A stretch of DNA of 64,000 nt, taken from IMG/VR virus record IMGVR_UViG_3300034061_004620, one strand, 5' to 3'. Of the stretch, positions 18,157-63,998 are shown in pieces. Within the stretch, counting starts at the first letter, position 1. Each line of letters opens with the position of its first letter. The stretch is from a virus. Taxonomy: Duplodnaviria; Caudoviricetes. The translations under genes were made by a program, and so were the position numbers. The notes below the pieces were generated by a model. The model was not told the origin of the DNA and did no database searches. It worked only from the letters and a program-made list of their open reading frames with translations.

Positions 18157-18181
18157 GATAATTATTAATAGGAGACAACAA

Positions 18182-30867: not shown

Positions 30868-30892
30868 CTATAAATCCAGAACACGCTATAAT
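30864..30892 (+). promoter_or_regulatory. sigma70-like promoter
   Basis: TTGACT-N17-TATAAT; AAGGAG RBS follows. Confidence 0.65.
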
Positions 30893-39781: not shown

Positions 39782-40878
39782 ATACCATTCCGTTCTTTGG
39801 TATCAATAGACAGTACAAAAATCTACGAGAAGAAATTTTAGATATTACTGATAGAATATATTCCACAGGACGAGTTCTTGACGGCGAATACACAAAACAT
39901 TTTGAAGAAAAAATAGCACGCCGGTGCAATAGAGCTTATGCTGTAGCTGTCAATTCAGGTACACAGGCTTTGATATTTGCTCAATTGGCAGCAATGCATC
40001 AACCTCCTTATTCTGTTCTTATTCCTACCATAAGTTTTGCTGCAACGATCAATAGTGTATTAATGAACGGTTACACACCGGTATTTTGTGATATAGATTA
40101 CAAAGGATTAATGGATCTAAGTTCTTATCAATACAAACTTGACCGAAGTGTAGGTGCAGTAATGTATGTAAATTTGTTCGGAAATTGCATTGATTGGGAT
40201 CAATTTAGAATCCAAACTGAATTTTTTAATGATGGTTTACTTATTATCGAAGATGCTGCTCAAAGCTTTGGTGCTTGTTACAAAGACATACCCAGCGGCA
40301 AGATGGGTGACATTAGTGTATTAAGTTTTGATCCAACAAAGAATTTAAATAACTACGGATCGGGAGGCATGATACTCACTGACGATTTTAAAATTTACGA
40401 AAGAGTTATGTCTCTAAGAGACAACGGAAAACCTCTACACGATCAACCAGGTACTAATAGTAAAATGAACGAAGCTGATTGTGCCCAAATGTTAATTAAA
40501 CTTCAACATTTTGATGCATGGCAACGACGTAGAACAGAGATAGCTAACTATTACATAGACAATCTATATCAATACGTAGATGTACTTGTTCCTAACGAAC
40601 ATGTTACACATGCCTGGCACAAGTTTGTAATTAGGACACACGAAAGAACTGCATTGCAATCAAGACTGGCTCAAAACGGAATTGAAACTAAAATTCATTA
40701 TCAAGATGCCTTATACGATTTAGAAGTAGGCTTTCATTATGTAGATCACGTAGAAGATAGATTTACAGAAACAGCCTCGTTTACCAGAGAATGTCTTAGT
40801 TTGCCTATCTATCCAGAATTGTCAGACTGCGAAGTAGAAACCATTGTAGATTGCATCAAACATTATATAGATTCTTAA
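39778..40878 (+). CDS. DegT/DnrJ/EryC1/StrS sugar aminotransferase
   Basis: NSGTQAL, EDAAQS, SFDPTKNLNNYGSGG, NSKM, LSLPIYP. Confidence 0.93.
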   Translation: MNTIPFFGINRQYKNLREEILDITDRIYSTGRVLDGEYTKHFEEKIARRCNRAYAVAVNSGTQALIFAQLAAMHQPPYSVLIPTISFAATINSVLMNGYTPVFCDIDYKGLMDLSSYQYKLDRSVGAVMYVNLFGNCIDWDQFRIQTEFFNDGLLIIEDAAQSFGACYKDIPSGKMGDISVLSFDPTKNLNNYGSGGMILTDDFKIYERVMSLRDNGKPLHDQPGTNSKMNEADCAQMLIKLQHFDAWQRRRTEIANYYIDNLYQYVDVLVPNEHVTHAWHKFVIRTHERTALQSRLAQNGIETKIHYQDALYDLEVGFHYVDHVEDRFTETASFTRECLSLPIYPELSDCEVETIVDCIKHYIDS

Positions 40879-42703
40879 ATCTTTGAGACAACCAAGGCCA
40901 ATCAAAACTTAACATTAGTTTATTATTGTTACCATTTACTTCATTGTAATAATTAATAGCGTCTTTCGCTCCACGTAAACACCACTCTGCGTTATCTCCA
41001 TTGGCTACGGTTAACCAAGTGTCTAATCTATGTTCTGTTTCAATGGTAGGACTTGTTTCCATGAACAATTTTAATTTTAAAACTTCTCTGAATGCTGTGC
41101 GCCAGGTCATCCAGGGATCGGCATTAAAATAGGCAATAGCACTGAGCTCAGGTATTACTGTGTGTTTTTGACTAAGTGTAAAATCTAATCCGGATTCTAA
41201 AGTTTCCAACACCAGTCTTTTATTATAAGCAATAACACCCATATGCCCGTATTCGAGTCCGTTTAAGCAATTACGACTATGGAATATATAATGTTTAGGT
41301 TCTTGCCAATAATCAGGTTGCCAACCAAAGTCAAAACTGCCCAACACTTCTAATTTTGCAAATACAGCGAAAAACCAGTCCGTGGTACTTGCCGAGGCGG
41401 CTGCATGATATGCAGCCGTTCGTCCGTTTACATTCTGTACTCTTTTTAAACGTTGTGTAGAATGTTTATGGTTCATGGTTACCAAAAGATGATCATACCA
41501 ACGTTCAGCATCAGGTTCACCGTTACTTATATAAACAATATCTAATTCTTTATCTGTATATGCATTTTCTTTACGTCGTAAAACGTATGGATAATCATAC
41601 AATTGTGTTTTAATATGCGCTTGAGCTTCTCTTGGTATTACACTTGTACTACCTGATATATTTAACGCTTCGGCAATACGATCCTTAGGGTGCCACATGC
41701 ACGGAGGAGTAAATACTGGATCAGTTGGAAGCGTATCTAATTTAAAAATAGCGTATGGAAAATTAAATTTGTACTCTTGTACAGTCGGAACTAAACTATC
41801 TTGCCGGTATTCTATTATTGGTACATCAATTGAAACAATTTGATCTGTGCAGTAATGAATCACATTAAACCAATCTAATAATTCTAATTCATACAATTGT
41901 GTTCGCAATGACGGCACATGAACATAAAAAGTATCGCCTCTTTTTTGAGGATACCATTTGTTACAAGATGTAGGAAACACATGTATCATTTCTCGTTGCT
42001 CGGGAGCAGGGTGCCAAGTAAAATCAAATTTTGAGTAATCGCAAAAGCTACTCGTAATCCAAACAAATTCTGTCGTGGCTAAATTTGCAATACGCTTGAA
42101 CACGTTTAAATGGCTATCAACATACCTGGTACTTTTTGCGTCAGGGTGTTGTTGTTGTATTCTGGCAAATTGTTCTGCACTTCCGTCGTTTAAGAAATCC
42201 ATATAAAAGATTCGTGTAGCACCATTACGTATGTGTTGTGCATTTACATATTTGATGCCAGCAGTACCTGGATATACAGGGCCTCCGTCCCGTTGCCACA
42301 ATGTGGGAAAATGGTATTCATAATCTTCTTCTAATTCGTCTGGATGCCAACTGTAATCAAATTTACTGTCGTCTATATTTGCAGGAACTATCCATTTTGC
42401 TTTCTCAACACAGCGTGTGACTTTTTGTTCTGTTCTAAAATGCCATTCTTTATTTTGCACGGTATCTTTATTAGCAAAGTAAGCACCTCCGGAACGTTGC
42501 CATTGTGTACCAAAACAATGCGTTTGATGGGCTTCCCAAGGAGCAGGACGCCAACTAAAATCAAAATTAGTGTAATCGTTACCGCCATAAATATACCAGT
42601 AATATCGAGTTCTACTTTTTTCCGCAGCATCCTCTAAACTACTTGCATATTTCTCAAATTCAAATTTATCGGGCTTAGAGCCGTAATAAAAAACATCAAA
42701 CAT
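40856..42703 (-). CDS. Multi-repeat GT-A-like protein, paralog family B
   Basis: Repeated FD(F/Y)xWxP; C-terminal unit similar to 59904-60851 (TAFREVLKL versus AGFREGVKM). Confidence 0.6.
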   Translation of the reverse strand: MFDVFYYGSKPDKFEFEKYASSLEDAAEKSRTRYYWYIYGGNDYTNFDFSWRPAPWEAHQTHCFGTQWQRSGGAYFANKDTVQNKEWHFRTEQKVTRCVEKAKWIVPANIDDSKFDYSWHPDELEEDYEYHFPTLWQRDGGPVYPGTAGIKYVNAQHIRNGATRIFYMDFLNDGSAEQFARIQQQHPDAKSTRYVDSHLNVFKRIANLATTEFVWITSSFCDYSKFDFTWHPAPEQREMIHVFPTSCNKWYPQKRGDTFYVHVPSLRTQLYELELLDWFNVIHYCTDQIVSIDVPIIEYRQDSLVPTVQEYKFNFPYAIFKLDTLPTDPVFTPPCMWHPKDRIAEALNISGSTSVIPREAQAHIKTQLYDYPYVLRRKENAYTDKELDIVYISNGEPDAERWYDHLLVTMNHKHSTQRLKRVQNVNGRTAAYHAAASASTTDWFFAVFAKLEVLGSFDFGWQPDYWQEPKHYIFHSRNCLNGLEYGHMGVIAYNKRLVLETLESGLDFTLSQKHTVIPELSAIAYFNADPWMTWRTAFREVLKLKLFMETSPTIETEHRLDTWLTVANGDNAEWCLRGAKDAINYYNEVNGNNNKLMLSFDWPWLSQRFKNLYNV

Positions 42704-43826
42704 GTATAATATTCACAGTCATTACGAAAATATATTTTCTTATCTAAAAACATTGGTACCACAACCCAGACTCGTTCATCTGCATCCATTTGGATCAACT
42801 AAAATTGATAATGCCGAGTCAATTAATATTGGGGGATACGGCCCGCTATTTTTTTGTTACGATCAAGAACCAATTATACCAAATTTTAACAGAGAACTAT
42901 TTCAACATGTACGTAATTATAAAGATGATTCAGGTCAACCAAGATCAACTATAGTACTTAACACAGAAAAAAATAGTCAAACTAAAAATACATTCTTAGA
43001 AGAATTTAATTTTGCCGATTGTTATTATTTTTTCCATGCATTTGCCGCGGCAGATTGGTATAGAGGCTATCAATATTGTACAGATTTAATACCAATAGAA
43101 CAACGAAAAATAAAGAAAAAATACATTTCTTTTAATCGTATTACCGGCGGTGCAAGAATGTATCGAACTATTTTAGTATCTGAACTACAAAGGCATGACA
43201 TTTTAAAATTTGGTAATGTAAGCTTTAGTCATAATTGCCCTGAATATGGATCCTATAAAGATTTTTTAACAGACGAAAATTACGTATATCAATTTAATCC
43301 TGGTTATTTAGATGAGGTTAAAGGAATATTAGACAATATAAATTTTCCGTTACGTATTGATAACTTTGGCTTAGAAACAATTCCAAATAACAGTCAGACA
43401 CTAAGTTGTATTCCGGCCTGTATGGAAAGTTTTGTTTATTTGGTTACCGAGACTTGTTTTTTTGATAAAAAATTGCATCTAACTGAAAAAGTTTTTAAAC
43501 CAATAGTGAGTAAGCAACCGTTTTTGTTGTTAGGTTGTGCTAATAATCTACAGTATTTAAAAAGTTACGGATTTAAGACTTTTAACAGATGGTGGGATGA
43601 AAATTATGATGCTATCGAAGATCCATTGACTCGTTTAAAGGTAGTTGTAAATATTCTTAAGGGTATTTGTGAAAAATCAAACGATGAACTCGAACAGATG
43701 CTGTTAGATATGCAGGAAGTTCTTGAATATAATTACAACTGGTTTTACAGCAAAGAATTTTTAGATTTAGTATGGAATGAACTTACAACTAATCTTCAAG
43801 CGGCAATTGCACAATTAAAACGTTAG
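42702..43826 (-). CDS. Glycosyltransferase-like protein, paralog family A
   Basis: LVTETC..TEKVFKPIVSKQPF..LQYLKSYGFKTF. Confidence 0.6.
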
Positions 43827-44232
43827 ACTTTTTCAAAAAATCAATCCCGGCAGTGTCTCGATAACTTTGACTGTAATAGACATCGGTTATCCCGCTTTGA
43901 TAAATTAATTTAGCACATTCCAAACAGGGACTGTGAGTAACAAACAAACTGGCGCCTTCTCCGCTTTCATTTGATCGTGCCAGTTTTGCGATTGCATTGG
44001 TTTCGGCATGCAAGACTTCAGGCTTTGTCGTAAGTCCTACTATTTCTCCATTGGGCCACTTACATTCGTCTTCACAGTCGTTGTCCCATCCCGCTGGCAT
44101 ACCGTTATAGCCAATACTAATTATTCTATCGTGTTTGGCAATGATACAACCTACCTTCAATCTGCGAGCATGACTAAGAGCTGCAAAAGTCTGAGCAGTT
44201 TGCATAAACGCACGTTTAAATTTCTCTTTCAT
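43789..44232 (-). CDS. dCMP deaminase
   Basis: GYNG, HAETNAI, SPCLEC. Confidence 0.92.
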   Translation of the reverse strand: MKEKFKRAFMQTAQTFAALSHARRLKVGCIIAKHDRIISIGYNGMPAGWDNDCEDECKWPNGEIVGLTTKPEVLHAETNAIAKLARSNESGEGASLFVTHSPCLECAKLIYQSGITDVYYSQSYRDTAGIDFLKKSNVLIVQLPLED

Positions 44233-44804
44233 TCCGCACCCATTTGCTTTCTAATAGCAGTGGCCGATATTGCCTGCGTGGCATCATCAAAGGTTTCTTG
44301 TTCAATCAAATAGCCAACATCGCGACCATATGTTATATTCACAATGTTAGGTACTACAATAATTTCGTACATACCTTTATATTCTGGATCTAAATCTGCA
44401 CGAATATAATTTTTAACTTGTTCAAGATCGAATGGATTACTATGATTCCAGCCTTGGCAATCTCTAATCATAATACATACTTGTCCAGTTTTCTTTATTG
44501 CACGGTCAAATAACGCACGATGCCCGGCGTGCCAAGGTTGCCAACGGCCTAACATTTGCACTGTGGGTTTACGCCAATCAAATATTGGCGTATTTGTTAT
44601 TTTAGCTGTATTGTTCATAATTGAGAGATATCCTTCACAATATACATTCCATTTTTCTATATTATTTTCTATAGTCACTTTATCTTTAACAGGCACCTGG
44701 ATATCTAAATGTTCAACCAAGTATTCAGTTTCATTTTCGAATACACGCCATACTTGGCCACTGTTGTTATGCTGATGATTAAATCTTATGTGATATTTGT
44801 TCAT
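44229..44804 (-). CDS. HxGH nucleotidyltransferase fused to an unknown N-terminal domain
   Basis: LGRWQPWHAGH, NPF, YGRDVG, ISATAIR. Confidence 0.75.
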   Translation of the reverse strand: MNKYHIRFNHQHNNSGQVWRVFENETEYLVEHLDIQVPVKDKVTIENNIEKWNVYCEGYLSIMNNTAKITNTPIFDWRKPTVQMLGRWQPWHAGHRALFDRAIKKTGQVCIMIRDCQGWNHSNPFDLEQVKNYIRADLDPEYKGMYEIIVVPNIVNITYGRDVGYLIEQETFDDATQAISATAIRKQMGAE

Positions 44805-45198
44805 AGATAGTTTTTGCCCATTTACCTGCGTCTTGTTCAGTTACTCTGATATCATATTTGTCGGGAGCCACAAATATTTGATTTGTATCTTTGTATCTAC
44901 CTTCTGTAATTGTATCTACCCAAATTAAAAAATGTGGGTCGTATATATCTCGCATTTCTTTAAGCGGACATACAAAGTCAGCTATTATAAAATCACGATT
45001 AGATGTGTCTGCAATTTCTCGCATTCTTTTACTTTGTCGTAGTCTACCCGCTTCACTGAAATCCCAATCATTGAATTTCCTACGTATTTCATCAGCATTT
45101 AACCATAATGCATCAGGAGAAAAATAATTTAATAAATTTATAGCAAGGGTGGTTTTACCTGCGCCTGGCAGACCCATTATAAGTATACGTTTTGTCAT
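44779..45198 (-). CDS. Adenylyl-sulfate kinase-like P-loop kinase (short)
   Basis: MGLPGAGKT, LNADEIR, DFS..GR, FVCP. Confidence 0.75.
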   Translation of the reverse strand: MTKRILIMGLPGAGKTTLAINLLNYFSPDALWLNADEIRRKFNDWDFSEAGRLRQSKRMREIADTSNRDFIIADFVCPLKEMRDIYDPHFLIWVDTITEGRYKDTNQIFVAPDKYDIRVTEQDAGKWAKTIYEQISHKI

Positions 45199-46676
45199 GA
45201 AAATACCTTCACGTTGTATTTACTTTCAAATCTATCCGCATCTACTCGATCGTTTACTATAGGCTCACCCTTAATATTTAAACTTGTATTAAGCAACATA
45301 GGGCAATCCGTTAAAACAAACCATTTTTCTAACAGTTCTCGGATTCCTGAACCATCTCGCGGTACCGTCTGTACTCGACTGGTCCCATCAACATGGCAGA
45401 TAGCAGGAAAACGGTTAGGAAACTTACAACGAGCGACTGACTGCATATAGCGACTATTAGTCCACCCAGGGCTGAAATCAAAGTACTGATCAGCCATCTC
45501 TTCCAATATGACCGGGGCGAAAGGTCTAAATTTTTGTCTTCTTTTGATTTCATTTACTCTATCCTTTATGTTGGGTCCTCTTGGATCTGCTAATAAACTT
45601 CTATTCCCCAAAGCACGTGGACCAAACTCAGCACGACCATTAGCAACACCACAAATACCGTCAGATAGTAAACTATCAAGTATGGATGTAACGGGATATG
45701 CGCCCGGAATATTGTGACCAAGATAAGCATTGACCCAATTAACACGCCGCCCATATTTAAGTGCGGCAGCACCAAGGCTGCTACCAGCATCACCAGGATT
45801 AGGCATAATCCAAATGTTTTCAAAATACTCTCCAAGATTTCTATTAGCCAAACAGTTTAATGCAACGCCGCCCATGTACACGAGATTAGTACTCCAGTTA
45901 AAATCTCTTGCGCGACGCATTACATTATAAATTAAATTTTCTACAGTCTTTTGTGCAGCAGCAGCTATATCAGCATCGTGTATATCTTGCATAAATGTGC
46001 GGTCTGCCCCGGCATGTAAATTGTGCTTAAACGTCACATTCCATTCGTTATTGATTAATGCATCTTGCATAGATGCAGCATGTCCTGTTCTTCCGTACGC
46101 TGACATTCCCATTAGAATATATTCGTCTTCGTTGGGCTTAAGACCAACTCTTTGTGTCATGGCAGAATAAAACAAGCCAATACTGTGAGGATATTGTTGC
46201 GACCATAATTTTTTATATTGTGCATAACCACGTCTATCATATTCTGCACCATATATACTGATAGTATCCCATTCTCCTATAGCATCAATAACAACCACTG
46301 TGGCACGATCATACGTACTGGTTTGAAATCCGGCTGCTGCATGACTGAGATGATGATTATGAGAACTATAACTGGGAATGTGTGCCCATCCTCCAAACTG
46401 TTCTGTTAAGATTTTCTTGGTAGATAGTTGATTCCACTCTATCCCTTCGCCGCTATATAACCTACGTAATTGCTTCTTCCATGGAGATTCATAATATGCA
46501 ACATGATGAATAGGAAAGTAGTCCATCACATCATCCATTAATGTGCGACAGATGTTTGAGTCGTTCTTCGACTTGCTATAGCGTTCGCTATGAGCAGCAA
46601 ATAGTATATCGCCTTGTGTATTAATTACACTAACTGCGGCGTCATGAAAGCCAGCTGATATTCCTAATATATTCAT
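45195..46676 (-). CDS. Carbamoyltransferase (CmcH/NodU/TobZ family)
   Basis: HDAA, HHLSHAA, GGVALNC, EFGPRALGNRS, FRPFAP, LNTSLNIKGEP; start at 46676. Confidence 0.93.
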   Translation of the reverse strand: MNILGISAGFHDAAVSVINTQGDILFAAHSERYSKSKNDSNICRTLMDDVMDYFPIHHVAYYESPWKKQLRRLYSGEGIEWNQLSTKKILTEQFGGWAHIPSYSSHNHHLSHAAAGFQTSTYDRATVVVIDAIGEWDTISIYGAEYDRRGYAQYKKLWSQQYPHSIGLFYSAMTQRVGLKPNEDEYILMGMSAYGRTGHAASMQDALINNEWNVTFKHNLHAGADRTFMQDIHDADIAAAAQKTVENLIYNVMRRARDFNWSTNLVYMGGVALNCLANRNLGEYFENIWIMPNPGDAGSSLGAAALKYGRRVNWVNAYLGHNIPGAYPVTSILDSLLSDGICGVANGRAEFGPRALGNRSLLADPRGPNIKDRVNEIKRRQKFRPFAPVILEEMADQYFDFSPGWTNSRYMQSVARCKFPNRFPAICHVDGTSRVQTVPRDGSGIRELLEKWFVLTDCPMLLNTSLNIKGEPIVNDRVDADRFESKYNVKVFS

Positions 46677-47295
46677 TGATATGTTCTGCTGTTTGTTGAT
46701 GACCAAGTTCTAATGGATGCCCTCTTGGACCCTTAAGACAATCGCCCATCCAATCCACCATTGCTTCATCGGGCCATCCTATAAAATACTGTGTATCAAT
46801 TTGTTTAATTAAATCATTGTTGCGTTCGTCGGTTCGTCTTAGGTCTTGATGATTTCCAAATACATCAAACATCAAATAAGGTTTGTTATTAAGTTTTAAA
46901 TATGATTGTACAAGTACAATGTTTAACAAGTATTGTCTATATAGATAATCATCATTATGGTGTCTACTATAATAATCAGTTACATTTGCTCGCCATGGAT
47001 ATTGATGTTTAAATGGTACATTAATTCTCCCGGGCCATGTATCAAATATATCATATTCGTCGGCTATTTCAATTCTATCAAAATGACTCCATGCTACAAT
47101 AACTGCATCAAAGTTATTTGATTCTTCTACGACTGTTCTAACCATGTGCGTATTGCCACGTCCTGGTTTACCTAAGTTAGTAAGTGTAGAATCAAGTGCA
47201 GCAGCTACTAATGCCGGCCATGCTGTATCCGCTGGGTTATCTAATTCGTCACCGTAGGTGAAACTATCGCCTACAGTTAATAATCTTTTTTTCAT
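46642..47295 (-). CDS. SGNH/GDSL-like protein
   Basis: VGDSFTYG, NLGKPGRGN, GHPLELGH. Confidence 0.65.
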   Translation of the reverse strand: MKKRLLTVGDSFTYGDELDNPADTAWPALVAAALDSTLTNLGKPGRGNTHMVRTVVEESNNFDAVIVAWSHFDRIEIADEYDIFDTWPGRINVPFKHQYPWRANVTDYYSRHHNDDYLYRQYLLNIVLVQSYLKLNNKPYLMFDVFGNHQDLRRTDERNNDLIKQIDTQYFIGWPDEAMVDWMGDCLKGPRGHPLELGHQQTAEHINEYIRNISWLS

Positions 47296-47393
47296 TTATA
47301 GATAAATGGATCTCGTTTACGTAATTCACGTAATTTTCTTCGATAACGTATTTCTAATACAATTCTATTCCAAATGTTTTTTAACCATGTCAT
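47292..47393 (-). CDS. 33-aa basic peptide
   Basis: MTWLKNIWNRIVLEIRYRRKLRELRKRDPFIYK; ATGA coupling to the next gene. Translated by hand. Confidence 0.55.
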   Translation of the reverse strand: MTWLKNIWNRIVLEIRYRRKLRELRKRDPFIYK

Positions 47394-48162
47394 TGAATTT
47401 CTCCTTGAGTAAATCTGCTGCGTCTATATGTGCTTGTTCAAGAGGGTGAGTTGTTCCTATTGGGTATTTGTTTTCAAGTGCCCATTGATAAAATCCTCTT
47501 GGAGTCTGTGTTTCATTGGGGTTAATTCCAGCCGGAAACCAAAACCAAGATTCTTGATCTTGAATTATTTGTCTATAAAGGCTTTGAATTGTTTCGCTAC
47601 TGTTTTTAACTGTTACACTATGTAAGAAATTATTATCTGCACACGTAAACAGATATCTCACACCATTCGTTTTTAGATAATTTTGAAGGTAAACAATTTC
47701 CTTTAAAGTCGAGTATACTTCCCAGTATTCCCCTGCTCCTACATGCTTGAAAAATAACGACGCAAACGTATAAATGCCGGAAAGTTTAGCACGATTAAGA
47801 GTGTCATGATGATCTTTTAGTATCTGAGCATCTTGGTTCACAAATTTTTTTTCAACCGACTGTTTATCCTCTATAGTCCACGGAGTTATAGAATACCAAT
47901 CTCTTGTAATCTGTCCGGTATCGTATGTGAATTTAAATTCATACCTGCCAGGAAATGTCCAACAAACAAAAACAAATAGTTCCTTGCCTAAATGTTTTTC
48001 AACAGCGTCAATAGTTCTTCTGGCGATGCCATCATTCCCAATTCCTGGCCACGCTATGCATTCATAATGATACTGGTCACTTAATAAAGCTGCAAAAGTG
48101 TTTTTTTGAGACTGTAATTCACTTCCGTAAATAAAGCTATCACCGGCTGCTACTATAATCAT
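47365..48162 (-). CDS. SGNH/GDSL-like protein
   Basis: AGDSFIYG, PGIGND, THPLEQAH. Confidence 0.65.
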   Translation of the reverse strand: MIIVAAGDSFIYGSELQSQKNTFAALLSDQYHYECIAWPGIGNDGIARRTIDAVEKHLGKELFVFVCWTFPGRYEFKFTYDTGQITRDWYSITPWTIEDKQSVEKKFVNQDAQILKDHHDTLNRAKLSGIYTFASLFFKHVGAGEYWEVYSTLKEIVYLQNYLKTNGVRYLFTCADNNFLHSVTVKNSSETIQSLYRQIIQDQESWFWFPAGINPNETQTPRGFYQWALENKYPIGTTHPLEQAHIDAADLLKEKFNDMVKKHLE

Positions 48163-56026: not shown

Positions 56027-57395
56027 GATATCGGCATTCTTCCCAAAATTCTTTCATTTCCGGGAATGTATTTAAAAAGTTTGTATCTCTTCGTTTGTCG
56101 TGCTCGTTAAAGAATCTAAAAAAATCAGCACGTTGCATTATAACATATTCTTGATCTAATTTGCTACCTTCTTGCATCCAATCTACCACTCGTTGCATTC
56201 TTTGCACTTCGTAATCTTTAAATCCTTGAAATGGTTTATCTTCAGTTTCTAAATTGGCCTGCATCCAATTGACCACATCTTGTAATCGTTTTGCATATAC
56301 AGGTGGTAATATCTGTAAGCTTTGCCAGGTAGGTTGTCTGAGTATGGGTGTATCAAACCAAACTCGTTGATATGTTGTACTGTGTAACCTTCGTAAAGCA
56401 AGAACAGTTTCTAATTGTCTTTTTAAACCTAACACACTTAGATTATTCATAGTAATAATGAATGTTAGACTGTTACGATAAGGAATGTGTCTTAAGAAAT
56501 AATCAACTCTTGCTAAAACTCTTTTATATTCCATTCCATGTCTGATATATTCGGCATGTTCGGCTATTCCGGTATCCAAACTTACATACTGCATGAAATG
56601 TTCAATATTTGTGTTACATAATTGGCTTACATAGCCAAAGTATTGTTCCCATAACTTTTCATCTACACTAAAGTTACTGGTCACATCAATATGCAAATCA
56701 GGTTTAGGAAAGGCCAACACATAGTCAAACACTCGATATGTATTACGATCCATTAGGGGTTCGCCGCCGGTCATTCTAAAATGTTTTAGTCGTGGATATA
56801 AACTGGGCCACCACTCCCAGAATGCATCAACATAAGGGTTATCTTCTCGAACAGGAATAGGTCGTCGGCGACCGGTAAAATGGGAAACATCATTATGAGT
56901 AGTGCTGGTGGGATATCCTCCATAACGTCTAATTTCATCATCCCAGCTACTACTAAACTGAGGACTACAATAGGAACACTTGAGATTGCAAGCATGATTA
57001 AAATTGACTTCCACATAGGAAGGAATAGCATCTTCATCGCCTGATGAGTTCGTGATGGTTTCAAAATGCTCACTTGCCCACGGTTCACCTGATCGGTAAT
57101 GTCTATCACTTAAATTCCCCAAATCTTCTTGTGTCCAACAATAACTGCATTCCTGTGGACGTTCGTTGCGTAGCATAATTTTACGCTGTTCTTTTTTGTA
57201 TGGTGTGTTATGTAACGCACCGGGATTGTCTTTTAATAGTGTGGCGTCTATTTCATGTAATGGTGGATGATAGCAACTGTTTGTTAGACCTGTGGGTAAG
57301 TGTAGACTTACTTGTTGCCATTTAGCAAGGCAAAGACTATTACCAAGTCTGTCTTTCATATTTTCAGCAAGATTTAAAAAATCACTTTTAACCAT
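56013..57395 (-). CDS. Radical SAM with N-terminal SPASM/twitch-like domain
   Basis: CLAKW..SCYHP..CSYC; CNLKCSYC; GGEP. Confidence 0.9.
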   Translation of the reverse strand: MVKSDFLNLAENMKDRLGNSLCLAKWQQVSLHLPTGLTNSCYHPPLHEIDATLLKDNPGALHNTPYKKEQRKIMLRNERPQECSYCWTQEDLGNLSDRHYRSGEPWASEHFETITNSSGDEDAIPSYVEVNFNHACNLKCSYCSPQFSSSWDDEIRRYGGYPTSTTHNDVSHFTGRRRPIPVREDNPYVDAFWEWWPSLYPRLKHFRMTGGEPLMDRNTYRVFDYVLAFPKPDLHIDVTSNFSVDEKLWEQYFGYVSQLCNTNIEHFMQYVSLDTGIAEHAEYIRHGMEYKRVLARVDYFLRHIPYRNSLTFIITMNNLSVLGLKRQLETVLALRRLHSTTYQRVWFDTPILRQPTWQSLQILPPVYAKRLQDVVNWMQANLETEDKPFQGFKDYEVQRMQRVVDWMQEGSKLDQEYVIMQRADFFRFFNEHDKRRDTNFLNTFPEMKEFWEECRYHAQN

Positions 57396-57837
57396 GTTGC
57401 CATTCTAAACGATTAACATCAAATTGATTCCCTAACTCTAACATATATCCTAATGGCGAAGACCCAGTTAGATGCATAGTAATACAACCGTTAAATCCCC
57501 AATAATTTTCATGTGTAATGGTTTTATTTCCTTCCCGCTGACAATAAAATAATTTGTCAATCATATCAATATGAATTGCAAATCCATTAATTAAAATTCC
57601 CACGATTTCTACGGCTTTATCAGCAACAACCTTACCTTTATGAAAAACTGTATCACCATTGTTTTTATTAGAAGAATAAATGGTAATTACTGAAGGCCAA
57701 TTTACTGTAAAACTTATTTGCCTATGATCGTTATCAAAACTATCCTCTTCAAAGACCAATATATCTTTATCATAGATTTTAAGAGCCATTGATCCGTTAT
57801 TATTTTTTATCTTGGTTAAAAATGTTATATTAACCAT
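57388..57837 (-). CDS. Hypothetical beta-rich protein coupled to the B12 radical SAM
   Basis: 149 aa; ends NGFAIH..YWGFNG. Confidence 0.55.
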   Translation of the reverse strand: MVNITFLTKIKNNNGSMALKIYDKDILVFEEDSFDNDHRQISFTVNWPSVITIYSSNKNNGDTVFHKGKVVADKAVEIVGILINGFAIHIDMIDKLFYCQREGNKTITHENYWGFNGCITMHLTGSSPLGYMLELGNQFDVNRLEWQHG

Positions 57838-59245
57838 ATTGTGTTATTTCCTGCTGAGTAGATTTAAAAGTTAGACCGTCGCCTGCACCATGTGAAAAAT
57901 TTAATTGTGAAAGAATAGTTGTTAATGACTTGTGATAATTTAATCTATCTTGTGTAGATACGTTATTAACGTTTGAAATCCAGTAAGTTGGAATTTCACC
58001 TTGTGTTATATTATAATCTTTTTTCTTTCTATCTAATTCGGTGTTTGGCAAAATTGAAGCGAGACTGAATACTACATTCTTTACAGGAAATCGAGCATAC
58101 TGTTTTCTATCTATAAACCATTTTTTTGTGAATTCAAAATCTTCTTTTGTTTCTGTTGGATATCCAACAATTAACAATAGGTTTAAAGGTATTGAAAATT
58201 CTTTAGCCATTTCTAAATGATAATCAATGTCATCGTTAGTGAAGTTTTTTCCTAAATTTATTCTAACTTTTTCTATGACGCTTTCTATTCCTAACAATAG
58301 ACTCCCATTGCTTTCTTTAATTTTTTGCCATAATGTTCTTGGATGTTGATTTTGACCTCTAACTATAAAATAACCGTCCCATGAGATTACATTTGTAGCT
58401 TTGGAATTGTATTCACAAATATAATCTAACAGTTTATTAAACTCTTTCATATTTCCGTTAGTAAGACTATTATAAAAGAAAAAATTTGAAATTTTATATT
58501 TTTCAATTTGGTGCAACATTTCGGAAAAAATATTACTTGCAGATCGATATTGGTATTTTTTCCAATGTTCGATAATATCACAAAATTCGCATGCCCTCAC
58601 ACAGCCTCTACTATCACAAATTGGGATTCCACATTCTTTATATTGTTGAAAATTATAATTATCAAAATTAGGAAATGGAAGATTGTTTAAATCAGTTATT
58701 TGTTGCCAATTTGCAGAGTTAATTCCCGGAAACGACATATTATTCTTCAAATATTGAACTAAACTATATTCCCCATCACCATTTATATAATCATCAATTA
58801 AATTTCTTTCCTTTAGTAGCTCTGCATAACCAATACTTGATTCTGCAATGAAATTTTTAATACCACTGCCCCCAATAATAATTTTTACATTTGGCGCACG
58901 AAATCTAAGATGATAGCATAACCAGATTGTAAAAAATTGATTATCCTGACATAATAAAGATAATGCAATAATTTTTGGGTTAAATGAAATTATCCTATTT
59001 GTACAAAATTCAATAAAAGATTCAATTGCTGCATAATTTTCGCTTGGAATTTCTTGAAATAATAAAAAGTTTTCTAATATTTTCGTGTCTTTACTGTGTC
59101 TAATATACAAATTCGCTTCATTATTAAGATCTATTGCTACAGCAGAAAAACCAGCCGCAATAACCGATGATTTTAAAACTGCCGGTGCTAACACCGGCCT
59201 GGAACTAAAAGTTCCGGCGGTTGAACATATCAAGACGTCAATCAT
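57830..59245 (-). CDS. B12-binding-domain (class B-like) radical SAM protein
   Basis: IIIGGSG, NGDGE, DSRGCVRACEFCD, GIES, IVGYPTET. Confidence 0.85.
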   Translation of the reverse strand: MIDVLICSTAGTFSSRPVLAPAVLKSSVIAAGFSAVAIDLNNEANLYIRHSKDTKILENFLLFQEIPSENYAAIESFIEFCTNRIISFNPKIIALSLLCQDNQFFTIWLCYHLRFRAPNVKIIIGGSGIKNFIAESSIGYAELLKERNLIDDYINGDGEYSLVQYLKNNMSFPGINSANWQQITDLNNLPFPNFDNYNFQQYKECGIPICDSRGCVRACEFCDIIEHWKKYQYRSASNIFSEMLHQIEKYKISNFFFYNSLTNGNMKEFNKLLDYICEYNSKATNVISWDGYFIVRGQNQHPRTLWQKIKESNGSLLLGIESVIEKVRINLGKNFTNDDIDYHLEMAKEFSIPLNLLLIVGYPTETKEDFEFTKKWFIDRKQYARFPVKNVVFSLASILPNTELDRKKKDYNITQGEIPTYWISNVNNVSTQDRLNYHKSLTTILSQLNFSHGAGDGLTFKSTQQEITQYG

Positions 59246-59910
59246 ACTATAAAAAAAATTAGAAATTGCTTCACTAATCCAAATTTAGCAAAGTTATTAC
59301 TTATATGCCATTGATTGCGGTCCCATACTAAAATATCTCCTAATGTATGCCGATAGTCAATGTCAATTGGCAATTTTTTTATCAAGGAAAAATTTTTATC
59401 ATGATCAAAATCAGTAAGAACTAAATTATTTTCATCCGTAGAGTTCTGCACCATTTGCTCGTAACTTGGATTAAAATCAGACCATACCTTAAAGGTAATT
59501 GTACGAAAATTGTCCCCTTCAACTAACGGAATCAGAACTGCTTTGTTATGCCTTATAGTTTTTGATCCAAAGCTCATACAATCGGGATAAAGATCTTGTT
59601 GCTTACGACTGTCTACATGTAAAATATAAGGTTTTTTACTTGATTTATATGATCCGGTATCAAATTCGTGATCATTTCCAATTATTTCATTTAATATTGG
59701 ATTCATTGTTTTGTAAATAAAATTTTCTGGTATATGGTATTCAAGATTTTTATTTACAATTCCCACTTCTGCGTGTTGTTCAGGTTGGTTTTTGTAAAAT
59801 TCTTTTATTGACTCTATTGTCTTTAGCTCAAGTATATTTTTGTAAACTTTACTTTTATGATTGTTCATTATAATCCTATTTTGGTTATATTTTTTAGAAA
59901 ATATTACCAA
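59242..59910 (-). CDS. Putative 2OG-Fe(II) oxygenase-like protein
   Basis: LHVDS (HxD) and GDILVWDRNQWHIS (distal His). Confidence 0.55.
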   Translation of the reverse strand: MVIFSKKYNQNRIIMNNHKSKVYKNILELKTIESIKEFYKNQPEQHAEVGIVNKNLEYHIPENFIYKTMNPILNEIIGNDHEFDTGSYKSSKKPYILHVDSRKQQDLYPDCMSFGSKTIRHNKAVLIPLVEGDNFRTITFKVWSDFNPSYEQMVQNSTDENNLVLTDFDHDKNFSLIKKLPIDIDYRHTLGDILVWDRNQWHISNNFAKFGLVKQFLIFFIV

Positions 59911-60851
59911 CCTTCTATTCTACGTATGACATCAATTTCTGTCATCATTATTTCACTATTACGCTGCCCAATACTGTAGTGATGTTTAAAAAATTCACTT
60001 TGCTTGGGTGTGTAAGTTACTATAGGTAAACCCAATCTGTTTGTCAATGCACTTTCTATTCTTTCGCATCCTTCCTGGGGATCTTCAGTGCTAAAACTGG
60101 TCCATAGTTTTTCAAGCATATCAAAGTCCTGTACATGATGATGATCCCATCCTTCAAGCATAATCATGTATGTGCCTAATCTTGCTCCATACATTGCCCA
60201 GTAACCATTTTCAACGTCTGCACCCACTGAGTGCCAAATACATAAATGATCATAGTTTCTTTTATTCACCCCATCTTCAAATTCTTGTAAAGTGGGCTTG
60301 TGTCCTCTGTTAAGACACATCTTTACACCTTCACGGAATCCGGCTCGCCATGCTTGTTTGGCACTGCCATTGGGATATGTTGTCGAATAACAATTATGCA
60401 TAGCCACATACTTTGGGTCAAAACAAAATTCAACAGCAGTTTCTTCATCGCCCAGGCTGGCCTCATGAGTACGCATACGATTTACAAAGTCCTTGGTCCA
60501 ACAACTAACACCACCGTTGCCATACCTTAACCCATTTATAACATTACGTGCTTTCCATCTAAAAACGTGGTCATGATTCCGTTCATCCAGCGATAATTGT
60601 AAGTTAAAAAATTCTGGATCCGGAATATTGTCTCCATCAACGAGAACAAAACGGTCTGTGTCTGACGCAGCGGCGGCTGCTTTATGCGCTGCATCAGACC
60701 CTTTAACTCCATCAACTCTCTTTGCCCATGGCACCATGTTTTGAATTTGGATCCAAAATTCTTCTTTTTTAGGTTCATCATAGGTTAAGAAAATACAATC
60801 TAAATCTGCTATGTCAACAATTTTAGCCGCTGTAGAATTCTGTGCTGTCAT
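59904..60851 (-). CDS. GT-A-like protein, paralog family B
   Basis: FLTYDEP, RVDGVKGSDAAH, LVDGD (DxD), YGNGG, AWRAGFREG. Confidence 0.6.
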   Translation of the reverse strand: MTAQNSTAAKIVDIADLDCIFLTYDEPKKEEFWIQIQNMVPWAKRVDGVKGSDAAHKAAAAASDTDRFVLVDGDNIPDPEFFNLQLSLDERNHDHVFRWKARNVINGLRYGNGGVSCWTKDFVNRMRTHEASLGDEETAVEFCFDPKYVAMHNCYSTTYPNGSAKQAWRAGFREGVKMCLNRGHKPTLQEFEDGVNKRNYDHLCIWHSVGADVENGYWAMYGARLGTYMIMLEGWDHHHVQDFDMLEKLWTSFSTEDPQEGCERIESALTNRLGLPIVTYTPKQSEFFKHHYSIGQRNSEIMMTEIDVIRRIEGW

Positions 60852-61170
60852 ATGTTTCTTTTTCTTCTAAAAGTAATGCCGCATGATTTTTTACTACTTG
60901 ATAACCGCTTGTGCTTGGATGTAACTGAACTCTATATCCAGGATCGTGTACAATTTTTCTCAGTTTACCATTTATTACTCGATCATATCTAAAATAATTG
61001 TCGTAAGTTTCTTTATCAACTACAATATAATTAGAATTGACAGGATGATCAATCATTGTACAACTCACAATAGATCCTTTACTGTCGTAGTGTATTCTAT
61101 ATTCTATTTTTTGTTGTGGAATATCACGAATCAAGCCAATGGCTGCAATCAACTCAGGAGGTATGTTCAT
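60823..61170 (-). CDS. Hypothetical protein
   Basis: ATAAATA on the - strand just upstream (61174-61180). Confidence 0.6.
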   Translation of the reverse strand: MNIPPELIAAIGLIRDIPQQKIEYRIHYDSKGSIVSCTMIDHPVNSNYIVVDKETYDNYFRYDRVINGKLRKIVHDPGYRVQLHPSTSGYQVVKNHAALLLEEKETYDSTEFYSG

Positions 61171-61987
61171 ATCTATTTATTATGCTGTCAGTTGGCCAAT
61201 GTTTTACATGGTAGTGTACAGGATTATATTGATTGAGATTATTAATCCTTACAATTGGCGGATCTACTTCACATACAACCAATTCGTTCCAATCAACCTG
61301 TCCGGGCCAATTTTGTACATGAGTTTTCATATGTACAAAATTAAAAAAATCTAAACTGGGAACGGTGCAATTTTCTACCCCCGTTATTTTTGCTGCCAGT
61401 GCATAGATTACATCAGTGCTGGGACGATCTTCTCTGCAGTTTTTTAACACATTATCTTTTAAATAATCATAATGCTGATAAAGTTTTTTAGCTGTGTTAA
61501 AAAAAAGTGCGGCTTCTTGTGAGTATCTGTAGTACATCATACCATTATAGATATTTGGCAAATCATTATCAGACCAAAATTTTCTATATTCCGTGTCAAC
61601 AACAACTGTGTCCTCAATATTACGACAATTTGTACTTAAAACAATATTACGCAATCTGAGTGCATGCCACCAGTGTTCAATATTTCGAGTGATAATAAGA
61701 TCTGATTCAAGTTTGATTGTTTCCTTAAATGGAGTAAGCCAAAATAAATCTGGTTCTACTTCCATCGGCCATTCGCTATCTCTACCTTCCACTACATAAT
61801 CAAATACTTTTTCAATTTTAGAGGTTACATTTTTCTTGGTCTTAAAATCAACCACTACAGCCGTTTTGGCATTAGGCATAGTCGTCTTGATACTCATTGC
61901 CTGTAGATAAGCCAATTCTAAATAATCTACTTTATTTGAACTGTAGGCTAAAGTTAAAAATCCTTGTTGTTCTTTGTGATTAAACAT
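61154..61987 (-). CDS. GT8-like protein, paralog family C
   Basis: GFLTLA..DYLELA, TPFKETIKLESD, IYNGMMYY. Confidence 0.55.
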   Translation of the reverse strand: MFNHKEQQGFLTLAYSSNKVDYLELAYLQAMSIKTTMPNAKTAVVVDFKTKKNVTSKIEKVFDYVVEGRDSEWPMEVEPDLFWLTPFKETIKLESDLIITRNIEHWWHALRLRNIVLSTNCRNIEDTVVVDTEYRKFWSDNDLPNIYNGMMYYRYSQEAALFFNTAKKLYQHYDYLKDNVLKNCREDRPSTDVIYALAAKITGVENCTVPSLDFFNFVHMKTHVQNWPGQVDWNELVVCEVDPPIVRINNLNQYNPVHYHVKHWPTDSIINRYEHTS

Positions 61988-62813
61988 TATTAATCAGTTG
62001 TAAATAATTTTCAGTTAACAAATATTGCTTGTGCATTACGTGTATATTATGTTTCGGAATCATGTAAGCTTTGTCGGGAGTTCGTATTATTAACATGTTA
62101 TCCTTTATGTTTATTGCAGTGATTTCTTCGGATATAGTAAGCATGTGCCACGGAATGAGATTTCGTTTGTCAATACTATACCCATTAAGTATAATATTTG
62201 CCATTGCAAATGCAAAGTCGTTTCTGTATTGTGCGCCATCAACATTAAATAAACTTCTATAATAGCCCCAGTTTCTTTGTATACGCCCAACCAGATTAAA
62301 AAATAGTTTGCTTTTGGGTGTCTTTCTAAATAAAACTACTGTAGCCCAAACATACGGTAGTCCAATATTTCCCATTCGCGCAGGCATTGAATGTTTAAAA
62401 TCGTTACTCTTGCCCTGTATCAAATAATCATACGTCTGATCAAATAGTTTTAGCAATGAGGTATCTAATACCACATAATCTGTATCAATCATGAGAGTAT
62501 TATCATAAGGCGTATGTTGATAAACACTATGCCTATGAAAATTTTTCCATTGCACCTGTTTTTTTGTAACAACATCTGTGCGTTGATTCTGCCCGGTATA
62601 ATCCAATCGTATCACATGATCGTAATTAAACTTTGGAGAAGAAGTTTTATCTGTTATTAAAGTCACAGGTAACTTTAATAATTTAGAAACAAGTAACGCA
62701 CATCTATCTGCTATAGCAACGTAATCAACTGAATCCGTATTAAAAGCAAATAACACAACGCCTTTAGATTCTTCGCTGTTTCTTGAGATATTCATGTTGT
62801 TGATGCCACTCAT
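61980..62813 (-). CDS. GT8-like protein, paralog family C
   Basis: GVVLFA..DYVAIA, TPYDNTLMIDTDY (DxD), WATVVLF, YRNDFAF. Confidence 0.6.
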   Translation of the reverse strand: MSGINNMNISRNSEESKGVVLFAFNTDSVDYVAIADRCALLVSKLLKLPVTLITDKTSSPKFNYDHVIRLDYTGQNQRTDVVTKKQVQWKNFHRHSVYQHTPYDNTLMIDTDYVVLDTSLLKLFDQTYDYLIQGKSNDFKHSMPARMGNIGLPYVWATVVLFRKTPKSKLFFNLVGRIQRNWGYYRSLFNVDGAQYRNDFAFAMANIILNGYSIDKRNLIPWHMLTISEEITAINIKDNMLIIRTPDKAYMIPKHNIHVMHKQYLLTENYLQLINNV

Positions 62814-63078
62814 TCATGACCGTTTGATAATGTTGTTGTGCAGTTACTAAAAAAACTTGTCTGTCAATTTTGATAGGATTTTCATAAACATCTTCCAAGT
62901 ATAATTCATCAACAGGCCAAGTTTTAACAAAAGCTAATAATTCTGGTGTAATTTTAAATAATCCACCATTATGCGTCATGTGTAGGTCAGTTTGAATCTT
63001 TTCTCGAAGAGTTCTTTTATTGGCCTGATAGTCGGTTGCCTGCTTAATTTCGGCGACTAAGTCATCTAATTCGTTCAT
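62764..63078 (-). CDS. Hypothetical protein
   Basis: 104 aa; in tandem. Confidence 0.6.
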   Translation of the reverse strand: MNELDDLVAEIKQATDYQANKRTLREKIQTDLHMTHNGGLFKITPELLAFVKTWPVDELYLEDVYENPIKIDRQVFLVTAQQHYQTVMNEWHQQHEYLKKQRRI

Positions 63079-63149
63079 AGTAAAAAGAGAAATGGGTAGA
63101 TGTTTATTTTACATTCTACCCATAATAAAGTCAAATAATTAGTTGCTAA

Positions 63150-63998
63150 TTATCCGAGAGTTACTGTACCCCAGGAATTGGTCAAATTTGTTGTTTCTGG
63201 ATATATTATATCAATTCTATTAGGAATGGTAATATTAATAGTATCGTTATATCCACCGTCCAAAGTTGATTGAGCTGCTGATGTAAGCGTTATCACAAAG
63301 GTTATAATTGTTCCATTATCAGAATTGGCACCTTGGACGCCATTTGATCGAGCAACGATTGTGACGGTGTCACTTGGGTACGCAGTATACGGACTGGAAC
63401 TCGCTGTCAAACTCACAATAGTTTGATTAAGTGTGGTCAAATCATAATATCCAATAGACGTGTCATTGGTGTTTTGTGTCTGACCTGATCCTGTTCGCCC
63501 ACCATTGGTTAGAGATCTGAATGCAGTTACACCTCCAGCGGCAGTAGCCATGGTAATTAAGCCAGCGCCGCGCCCTGTTGCTCCAGTATTTGTACCAGCA
63601 CCAATAATTAAATTTAATTGACCGCCACTGTTAAAAAAATACCTTGCGGCATCTCCTGAAGAAAAAGTAGCTGTACGTGTAATTGTTAGTGTTTGTGCTG
63701 CTGCGCCTGTTACATTAAGAACTGAATTAGTAGTTGTTCCGGTAGTAGTTGTACCTTGTGTAGCAAAATTTAGTCTGTTTGTGTAACTGGTATTAATATT
63801 TGTAGCAAGTGTAGACAGATGATTTATTCTATCTCCGGAGACAACGGCAGAAATACCAGAACCTGATCCGCTTTGATGTGTTAATGCACTGTTCAAAGTA
63901 TTAATCAAGCTTGCCCATTGCGTAGCTGTTACAGTATTTCCAGCCGCTACAGCAGATATCGCAGTCTGGCCATAACCAGCATTACCTGAACCAGTAGA
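63150..63998 (-). CDS. 5'-truncated Thr/Gly/Ser-rich virion structural-like protein
   Basis: The frame stays open to the window edge (..GNAGYGQTAISAVAAGNTVTATQWASLIN..); fibre/baseplate-like composition. Confidence 0.65.
   Translation of the reverse strand, partial: STGSGNAGYGQTAISAVAAGNTVTATQWASLINTLNSALTHQSGSGSGISAVVSGDRINHLSTLATNINTSYTNRLNFATQGTTTTGTTTNSVLNVTGAAAQTLTITRTATFSSGDAARYFFNSGGQLNLIIGAGTNTGATGRGAGLITMATAAGGVTAFRSLTNGGRTGSGQTQNTNDTSIGYYDLTTLNQTIVSLTASSSPYTAYPSDTVTIVARSNGVQGANSDNGTIITFVITLTSAAQSTLDGGYNDTINITIPNRIDIIYPETTNLTNSWGTVTLG

Follow-up and report, generated by a model that had tools for sequence, protein, structure and literature searches.

A candidate glycan-building and tailoring operon with five N-twitch radical SAM enzymes behind a fiber-like gene of an uncultured freshwater jumbo phage

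Introduction

The question raised by this locus is what a large phage makes with a run of genes in which putative sugar-transferring enzymes stand beside five radical S-adenosylmethionine (SAM) enzymes, and where the product goes. The run lies in the IMG/VR record IMGVR_UViG_3300034061_004620 (Duplodnaviria; Caudoviricetes), of which we analyzed a stretch of 64,000 nucleotides (the window). An earlier note on this DNA proposed that the phage builds and tailors its own glycan. Our analysis supports that proposal, and we regard it as probable, with moderate confidence, that the genes form a phage-encoded, wholly cytoplasmic operon for the building and tailoring of a sugar or glycan. The transferases, the carbamoyltransferase, a pair of SGNH-like proteins, genes for nucleoside diphosphate (NDP)-sugars elsewhere in the window and similar arrays in distant lineages speak for it. 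Provided that a glycan is made, the leading, still tentative candidate for its acceptor is a virion protein of the adjacent fiber module.

Glycosylation by enzymes of viral origin has been described for giant viruses and mycobacteriophages, but is not known to occur with a battery of radical SAM enzymes. The cassette described here is present in many large aquatic phages, and such cassettes are mentioned in the literature just in passing. Identification of the product would give a function to a large orphan family of radical SAM enzymes and might uncover anaerobic-type sugar chemistry that is new. It would also tell whether fibers, hosts or something else are decorated by phages that abound in the environment.

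A 22-Gene Operon With Sugar-Type Enzymes

A run of 23 open reading frames (ORFs) extends on the minus strand from position 63998 down to 43789 and includes the fiber-like gene at its start; the operon proper comprises the 22 mostly overlapping genes from 63078 to approximately 43789 (19 kb). Neighboring genes overlap by 4–65 nt, with the exception of two gaps (63079–63149 and 47296–47364), in keeping with the earlier description of nearly all genes as overlapping. That description drew a single minus-strand island from 40856 to 63998, of which the run 63998–43789 stands. The remainder (40856–43826) does not belong to it, as 42702–43826 lies on the plus strand and 40856–42703 is a separate minus-strand gene.

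One scan of viral contigs yielded 79 related loci, onto which the window proteins were mapped; the locus counts below refer to this set. The sugar-type genes of the operon are:

61980–62813, minus strand: 277-aa protein a (277a), like glycosyltransferase family 8 (GT8); 52 loci; invariant D110-x-D112
61154–61987, minus strand: 277-aa GT8-like protein b (277b); 52 loci; glycogenin-1 match, E 0.004
59904–60851, minus strand: 315-aa candidate GT-A-fold transferase; 54 loci, 68% identity; invariant D72-G-D74
47365–48162, minus strand: SGNH-like protein a; N-terminal GDSF block; paralog of SGNH-like protein b (blastp 1e-5)
46642–47295, minus strand: SGNH-like protein b (DUF6071); DUF6071 5e-9, Lipase_GDSL_2 1.5e-4
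45195–46706, minus strand: NodU/CmcH/TobZ-family carbamoyltransferase; Carbam_trans_C 7e-47, Carbam_trans_N 6e-36; 57 loci, 68% identity

The carbamoyltransferase, already named as such in the earlier note, contains both characteristic domains (Carbam_trans_N 125 bits and Carbam_trans_C 160 bits, vs. cut-offs of 24 and 27), and its score lies under the NodU equivalog cut-off (133 vs. 1000 bits). The prediction of two SGNH-like genes has support in the DUF6071/GDSL profile of one (Lipase_GDSL_2 22.8 bits vs. a cut-off of 32.9) and the paralogy of the other; both carry the GDSF block.

The identification of two GT8-like genes and of a GT-A-like gene is weakly supported. The 277a and 277b proteins are paralogous (hhalign 98.5%) and have no Pfam match. 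The match of the 277b profile to glycogenin-1 covers the N-terminal 110 residues; the 277a family gave nothing significant in a PDB profile search and is linked to GT8 via its paralog. A PDB profile search with the 315-aa family also gave nothing significant. The structural model of this protein (predicted local distance difference test, pLDDT, 73) has the PBCV-1 A64R capsid glycosyltransferase (PDB 2p6w) as its top Foldseek match (E 3e-3), and the top rows of the VIA comparison are all GT-A or nucleotidyltransferase folds (Z 6–7.7). The model weakly supports a GT-A fold with a DxD motif; with such modest scores (Z < 8), the protein may also function as a nucleotidyltransferase.

Genes that could supply activated sugars are found elsewhere in the window. 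These encode an NDP-sugar epimerase/dehydratase with a DegT protein (38813–40878), a further epimerase (15605–16570), a DegT fragment and a UDP-glucose dehydrogenase. The second DegT-family ORF is merely 204 aa long (16533–17147, plus strand), and the UDP-glucose dehydrogenase is apparently split into overlapping ORFs of 263 aa and then 183 aa (20246–21585, plus strand); either may reflect a fragment, a frameshift or a split gene.

Five N-Twitch Radical SAM Enzymes

Six radical SAM genes lie within the operon:

56013–57395, minus strand: N-twitch radical SAM enzyme rS1; NF033640 2.5e-91; own orthogroup clade
54671–56026, minus strand: N-twitch radical SAM enzyme rS2; NF033640 4.3e-84; clade support 1.0
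53355–54674, minus strand: N-twitch radical SAM enzyme rS3; NF033640 5.1e-119; Pfam SPASM (41–104) precedes Radical_SAM (150–298)
52138–53358, minus strand: N-twitch radical SAM enzyme rS4; NF033640 6.2e-104
49263–50558, minus strand: N-twitch radical SAM enzyme rS5; NF033640 5.4e-83; 80% column identity, 25 orthologs
57830–59245, minus strand: 471-aa B12-type radical SAM protein (accessory); Radical_SAM 6e-11, B12-binding 0.008

The curated cut-off of the NCBIfam family NF033640 (N_Twi_rSAM) is 170 bits. With 279–398 bits rS1 to rS5 all exceed it, confirming the earlier count of five radical SAM enzymes with auxiliary clusters; two other radical SAM proteins of the window score 207 and 212 bits. 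The Pfam SPASM domain lies N-terminal to Radical_SAM in three of the island enzymes, and the CX3CX2C motif, GGEP and the N-terminal set of cysteines are kept in an alignment of all seven window paralogs. As the five paralogs are mutually only 20–26% identical, and as each forms a separate clade with one ortholog per locus in the 15 sampled loci, we consider them old orthogroups and not recent duplicates. A profile of the seven paralogs, compared with solved structures, placed viperin nearest (2e-9), followed by SkfB, viperin-like enzymes, MoaA and BlsE. These are mostly enzymes acting on nucleotides or nucleotide-linked sugars, which may be a hint toward the substrate.

The 471-aa protein can be assigned to the radical SAM enzymes (Radical_SAM 43 bits), as the earlier note had done; the B12-binding domain given in the same assignment is weak (16.4 bits vs. 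a cut-off of 32.1). Its matches to the NCBIfam class B methyltransferase families are weak as well, all far under the cut-off, the best being a C-methyltransferase of ribosomally synthesized and post-translationally modified peptides (RiPPs). Only distant relatives of this protein were found, in 7 of the 79 loci.

The 64-kb window contains at least 10 radical SAM genes. N-twitch genes outside the island are located at 867–2021 and 37078–38592 (plus strand), the latter with a 120-residue N-terminal extension and situated between ThyA and the NDP-sugar epimerase/dehydratase and DegT pair. Two more radical SAM genes, one of which is the second of the B12 type, lie at 10421–11968 and 22721–23584 (plus strand).

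Together, the enzymes suggest the following pathway. NDP-sugars would be made or altered by the phage dehydratase/epimerase, DegT and UDP-glucose dehydrogenase, and the GT-A-type enzymes would transfer them to the acceptor. Each of the five anciently diverged N-twitch enzymes would perform one oxygen-independent hydrogen abstraction on a sugar or nucleotide-sugar, with epimerization, oxidation, deoxygenation and C–C bond formation as candidate reactions. The glycan would be finished by O-carbamoylation through the carbamoyltransferase and by the addition or removal of acyl groups through the SGNH pair. In a bolder version, which we think rather unlikely, the five N-twitch orthogroups carry out an ordered, oxygen-independent radical editing of a protein- or nucleotide-bound sugar, giving a carbamoylated glycan on the tail fibers that tunes host recognition or serves as a shield. 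If true, this would be carbohydrate chemistry not yet described, on the fibers of abundant lake and ocean phages.

The same inventory could instead yield a free small molecule, such as an aminoglycoside- or nucleoside-like metabolite or an altered nucleotide, directed against the host or competitors and made without a macromolecular acceptor. Clusters for aminoglycoside and nucleoside antibiotics combine the same types of enzyme (twitch and B12-type radical SAM, TobZ-type carbamoyltransferase, DegT, kinase, nucleotidyltransferase), viperin, MoaA and BlsE act on nucleotides, and similar genes have been labeled “antibiotic synthesis genes” in a cyanophage paper (PMC12801897). However, the island contains no scaffold-forming enzyme (e.g., 2-deoxy-scyllo-inosose synthase), exporter or self-resistance gene, and its location directly behind fiber genes is conserved, so that we consider this explanation improbable.

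Conservation of the Core and Distant Lineages

The DNA polymerase encoded at 3598–6258 is of the T4 family (PHROG 262, E 7e-188) and has its nearest kin, at 51%, in jumbo phages, e.g., Sinorhizobium phage Phosso and Agrobacterium phage Atu_ph07. The window sequence is contained in a 346,174-bp contig assembled from a lake metagenome and is found near-intact in lake and freshwater metagenomes of 16 studies. Its source is an abundant, uncultured, freshwater T4-related jumbo phage of approximately 346 kb, which appears to be lytic and T4-like. Against cultured phages, a megablast of the window gave no match, and tblastn with the radical SAM protein gave only 4 weak matches.

A comparison of synteny across relatives, called for in the earlier note, showed that the core order is kept in most of the 79 loci. 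It starts with the fiber-like gene, rich in Thr, Gly and Ser (TGS), followed by the 104-aa gene, 277a, 277b, the 115-aa and 315-aa genes and rS1–rS4. Next come a variable slot, rS5, the 384-aa gene, the SGNH genes (variable) and the carbamoyltransferase, and finally the kinase and nucleotidyltransferase (variable), the dCMP deaminase and the 615-aa protein. Across loci the enzymes are 57–74% identical, the fiber-like protein just 44%. The variable slots hold TEK-type, SDR-like and SGNH genes in other phages, and the nucleotide genes at the flank are not always present.

Between the 315-aa gene and rS1, the window carries a trio of genes (2-oxoglutarate (2OG)-Fe(II)-oxygenase-like, B12-type radical SAM and 149-aa) that is absent as such from the related loci; the first and last of these were found in none of the 79. 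Since other phages hold TEK-type genes at this spot, the site is an accessory slot, and the trio is, on this comparison, a lineage-specific insertion.

Relatives that are near-complete have 6–12 N-twitch genes each, five of them in the island and the others scattered. In addition, three distant lineages (approximately 42% identity) carry N-twitch arrays beside sugar enzymes. The array of the first includes a methyltransferase, a B12-type radical SAM enzyme, a DegT fusion and, at its end, a Zeta/AAA_33-type kinase, and is preceded by three tandem fusions of GT7 (beta-1,4-galactosyltransferase-like) with Laminin_G_3 (contig positions 1–3439). This GT7/Laminin_G_3 lineage is very widespread, its sequence being indexed in 132 blocks of the collection. 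In the second lineage, the array contains a UDP-glucose dehydrogenase and an Anp1-like GT-A protein and adjoins sigma-70 and superoxide dismutase genes; in the third, it contains a B12-type radical SAM enzyme and DUF6071 and adjoins a DNA ligase gene. The link between radical SAM and sugar enzymes recurs, the link with a fiber gene not always.

A single-protein scan of genome contigs returned four loci. Searches for the 384-aa and 315-aa families in three bacterial metagenome-assembled genomes (MAGs) with N-twitch arrays were negative; these MAGs are incomplete, and absence is not implied. A 75%-identical copy of rS3 is present on a 2.5-kb contig binned in an uncultured Polynucleobacter MAG, which is a weak hint to the host or a binning artifact.

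Some of these arrays bear on a further explanation, a proteusin- or RiPP-like modification of side chains of the fiber-like protein, with epimerization or cross-links introduced by the radical SAM enzymes, C-methylation by the B12-type enzyme and hydroxylation by the 2OG-like protein. Enzymes of the SPASM/twitch type are mostly peptide maturases, the best (weak) match of the B12-type protein is a RiPP C-methyltransferase, a Thr/Gly/Asn/Val-rich protein is encoded directly upstream, and an array in a member of the Bacteriovoracaceae is without glycosyltransferases. Yet matches to peptide-maturase families are all far under their cut-offs, neither a leader peptide nor an element for RiPP recognition was found, the core has three GT-A-type proteins and a sugar-type carbamoyltransferase, and the distant arrays accompany UDP-glucose dehydrogenase, DegT and GT7 genes. 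We regard such peptide modification as distinctly improbable.

The Fiber-Like Neighbor and the Promoter Junction

The start of the run consists of two elements:

63150–63998, minus strand: Thr/Gly/Ser/Asn-rich fiber-like protein; neighbor and candidate acceptor, outside the operon
63079–63149, minus strand: junction element; promoter TTGACT-N17-TAAAAT (63134–63106) and hairpin GGGTAGA...TCTACCC

In full, the fiber-like protein has 310 aa, the 5′ end of its gene being located past the window edge. It contains the conserved globular motifs GYGQ, ARYFFNAGG and YPET.NL.NTWG and has no Pfam, PHROG or PDB match; the genes upstream of it encode large fiber-like proteins (Peptidase_G2 faint, Gly_rich_2 weak). 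In the 71-nt gap between this gene and the 104-aa gene, the −10 box is placed inside the hairpin loop, and a T-rich tract follows the hairpin. Among 33 distinct homologous intergenic sequences, the −35/−10 pair was present in 28, a strong hairpin in 29 and both in 26. The stem sequences vary among loci, and the mean minimum free energy of the junction is −16.3 kcal/mol vs. −6.0 kcal/mol for shuffles.

The pattern TTGAC-N16-19-TAnnnT has 23 matches in the window, of which 7 are intergenic, all of them 7–28 nt upstream of a gene on the same strand. Genes behind such promoters include those for DNA polymerase, an exonuclease and UDP-glucose dehydrogenase, as well as this operon. Promoters of this type on the plus strand are found at 3563–3591, 7234–7262, 20194–20222, 24790–24818 and 30864–30892. 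As some −10 boxes end just 7 nt before the start codon, the leader of these mRNAs may be very short or missing. In T4, early genes are under sigma-70-like promoters, and transcription of the late structural genes relies on TATAAATA. This late-promoter octamer occurs once in the window (vs. 8.9 expected from shuffles) and once in the fiber region, which is too rare to class genes.

Because the conserved hairpin and the sigma-70-type promoter set the fiber-like gene apart, the operon is probably its own transcription unit, transcribed separately and together with replication-class genes. The hairpin would end transcripts from the fiber gene while the promoter starts the operon, and transcripts begun at this promoter would be without the 5′ arm of the hairpin. 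The earlier note had the island running from a virion gene and named missing co-transcription with structural genes as a point that would refute its proposal. The adjacency to the fiber-like gene is real; the conserved hairpin and promoter that intervene argue against simple co-transcription. An early promoter is nevertheless compatible with a virion target, as enzymes made early can act on late proteins.

Possible Destinations of the Product

No hydrophobic 19-mer typical of a membrane helix was found in any island protein, and Bac_transf (PF02397), Glycos_transf_4 (PF00953) and Wzx-type (PF01943) proteins were found in none of three relatives that are 97–100% complete. With neither a membrane helix nor a priming transferase or flippase, the phage appears to have no lipid-carrier route of its own, which argues against a self-contained surface-polysaccharide pathway, although host components could still be used. 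Since no membrane step is encoded, we favor a soluble cytoplasmic acceptor; host export machinery may still be involved.

Host components are central to the possibility that the operon remodels the host envelope. Here, its sugars or precursor edits would be placed in lipopolysaccharide (LPS) or capsule by the lipid-carrier machinery of the host, blocking superinfection by rival phages or the re-adsorption of progeny. This is how the glycosyltransferase and radical SAM cassettes that pelagimyophages carry in their host-recognition cluster have been read, and GT8 enzymes are common in LPS synthesis (PMC7029224). The sigma-70-type, probably early, promoter would suit a takeover of the host. Against this stand the absence of any membrane protein encoded in the island, the lack of a priming transferase and flippase in the near-complete relatives, and a lytic, T4-like life style that would leave little time for surface turnover. 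On balance we find envelope remodeling rather unlikely.

Alternatively, the transferases could glycosylate modified bases of the phage DNA, with the other enzymes tailoring that glycan. Phage glycosyltransferases are described as decorating hydroxymethyl-pyrimidine DNA with diverse glycans (Pyle et al., 2024, as cited in PMC12619734), and genes of nucleotide metabolism surround the island (dCMP deaminase, ThyA and DHFR), with GTP cyclohydrolase I and another radical SAM enzyme also encoded in the window. The window ThyA, however, scores as a true thymidylate synthase (365 bits vs. a cut-off of 327). As each of the three near-complete relatives has a single ThyA-family gene, no hydroxymethylase was found that would supply the acceptor base. 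Moreover, the flanking nucleotide genes are inconstant among loci. These comparisons argue against a hydroxymethyl-pyrimidine DNA-glycan pathway, and we consider DNA hypermodification highly improbable.

Several observations also weigh against our proposal of a glycan-tailoring operon. The transferase assignments are partly weak (GT8 E 0.004; TEK/GT10 E 0.039). To our knowledge, NF033640 is a catalogued family with no characterized member, so that a role in sugar chemistry is guilt by association, and SPASM/twitch enzymes more often act on peptides. The synteny comes mostly from one lineage (55–87% identity) and does not therefore amount to many independent observations. The further N-twitch copies of the relatives are scattered far from the fiber genes, and in a Bacteriovoracaceae MAG several N-twitch enzymes form an array with no glycosyltransferase nearby. 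The promoter junction appears to speak against co-transcription with the fiber gene, and the arrays of the distant lineages have no identifiable fiber genes adjoining them.

Accessory and Flanking Genes

The remaining genes of the run and its surroundings are:

62764–63078, minus strand: 104-aa conserved protein, first gene of the operon; 48 of 79 loci, median identity 65%
60823–61170, minus strand: 115-aa conserved protein; 47 loci; no family match
59242–59910, minus strand: 2OG-Fe(II)-oxygenase-like protein, 208/222 aa (accessory); motif only
57388–57837, minus strand: 149-aa accessory protein; no homolog in related loci, no family match
51219–52172, minus strand: 317-aa TEK protein, possible GT10-like transferase (variable accessory); E...(T/S)EK-FKPI motif
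50551–51222, minus strand: 223-aa Rossmann protein, like short-chain dehydrogenases/reductases (SDRs; variable accessory); 13 loci; weak YlbE/RmlD matches
48140–49294, minus strand: 384-aa conserved protein; 64 loci; predicted cyclophilin-like barrel with inserted helical bundle
44779–45198, minus strand: 139-aa P-loop kinase, APS-kinase/AAA_33/Zeta-like; APS_kinase 3.5e-7; pathway membership uncertain
44229–44804, minus strand: 191-aa HxGH nucleotidyltransferase; best match NMNAT 1e-7, below cut-off; pathway membership uncertain
43789–44232, minus strand: dCMP deaminase, final gene of the run; dCMP_cyt_deam_1 7e-23
42702–43826, plus strand: 374-aa second TEK-family member, on the strand opposite to the run
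40856–42703, minus strand: 615-aa protein; four FD(F/Y)xW.P repeats; C-terminal degenerate GT-A paralog

Profile searches with the 104-aa protein gave no family match. The earlier note had also listed a 2OG-Fe-like gene, an SDR, an APS-kinase-like gene and a nucleotidyltransferase. For the 2OG-like protein, H84-x-D86...H188 and K200 are invariant in 20 homologs, as the assignment would predict; profile support is missing, with nothing found for the family in Pfam, PDB or hhalign searches, and hhalign against the PF13640 alignment aligned only 19 N-terminal columns. The SDR assignment is weakly supported by the invariant G6, G9 and G12 (GxxGxxG) and the weak RmlD/YlbE matches; a PDB profile search with the family gave nothing significant. 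The third gene does encode a P-loop kinase, but one that falls under the adenylyl-sulfate (APS) kinase cut-offs (26–28 vs. 127–139 bits). The fourth has the sub-threshold NMNAT match as weak support. A 3′-phosphoadenylyl-sulfate pathway formed by the last two was considered and dropped, as neither reaches the APS-kinase or sulfurylase cut-offs. The run closes with the genes for the kinase, the NMNAT-like protein and the dCMP deaminase, which may serve nucleotide metabolism; for the dCMP deaminase this is probably the case, rather than glycan chemistry.

The E...(T/S)EK-FKPI motif of the TEK family resembles the catalytic motif of GT10. An hhalign comparison with the GT10 alignment aligned exactly the E..TEK region, at E 0.039 and a probability of 1% (not significant); none of the 21 members has a Pfam match, and no PDB match was found by profile.

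The 384-aa gene always lies directly after rS5. Its product is modeled (pLDDT 86; predicted template modeling score 0.83) as a cyclophilin-like barrel, which in VIA matches cyclophilins (Z ∼8–8.7) and in the ESM atlas Cyclophil_like folds. Foldseek against PDB returned no match, a PDB profile search nothing significant, and the relatives in the AlphaFold DB are uncharacterized.

The 615-aa protein has a C-terminal domain that is paralogous to the 315-aa protein (blastp 1e-11 over 216 residues) and is without the DxD motif; by eye, the FD(F/Y)xW.P repeats resemble the second half of this domain. Atlas searches with the two proteins led to the same 1001-aa viral cluster. The pair is kept in relatives, where counterparts of the 615-aa protein are found in ORFs of 561–1075 aa.

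At 18134–18859 (plus strand), amid sugar and GTP cyclohydrolase genes, the window encodes a full-length Bax1-I (BI-1/YccA-type) membrane protein (E 1e-50).

Comparison With Known Systems

For heterologous expression, concrete constructs follow from the core set now defined, from the accessory slots and from the promoter. Three known systems, together with the radical SAM family itself, offer points of comparison. The first, and the nearest in described biology, is virion glycosylation. Capsid and tail-tube glycans of mycobacteriophages are described as virus-encoded (Freeman et al., 2023, as cited in PMC12801897 and PMC12619734). As in mycobacteriophages and the chlorovirus PBCV-1, transferase genes here stand beside structural genes and the enzymes are all cytoplasmic, and by fold the 315-aa protein comes nearest to A64R, a capsid glycosyltransferase of that chlorovirus. 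Those systems rely on a small number of glycosyltransferases without radical SAM enzymes, and the glycans on their virions have been measured, whereas the operon described here has a candidate target and, unlike them, its own promoter.

The second is the host-recognition cluster of pelagimyophages and cyanomyophages, in which GT8 genes and “radical SAM cassettes” were recorded by Zaragoza-Solas et al. (2020). In that study, the cassettes were ascribed, in passing and unanalyzed, to modification of the host O-chain (PMC7029224). In comparison, the phage described here is a freshwater jumbo phage with a cassette of defined order and parts.

With the tailoring of aminoglycosides and nucleosides (BtrN, NeoN, HygY and BlsE, GenK-type enzymes, TobZ), the operon shares a twitch-type auxiliary cluster, a B12-type radical SAM protein and a carbamoyltransferase of the Carbam_trans_N/C type, and BlsE is among the nearest solved cores of the island enzymes. 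In contrast to the antibiotic enzymes, the twitch domain is N-terminal and not C-terminal, the similarity is limited to the radical SAM core, and antibiotic scaffold genes are absent from the island. The comparison with BtrN, NeoN and TobZ made in the earlier note therefore holds as an analogy of enzyme classes, while the island radical SAM enzymes belong to a different, uncharacterized family. With that family, NF033640, they share scores above the cut-off and a twitch/SPASM cysteine domain that precedes the CX3CX2C core. What sets them apart from NF033640 in general is their arrangement as five old orthogroups, in fixed order, within an operon of sugar enzymes.

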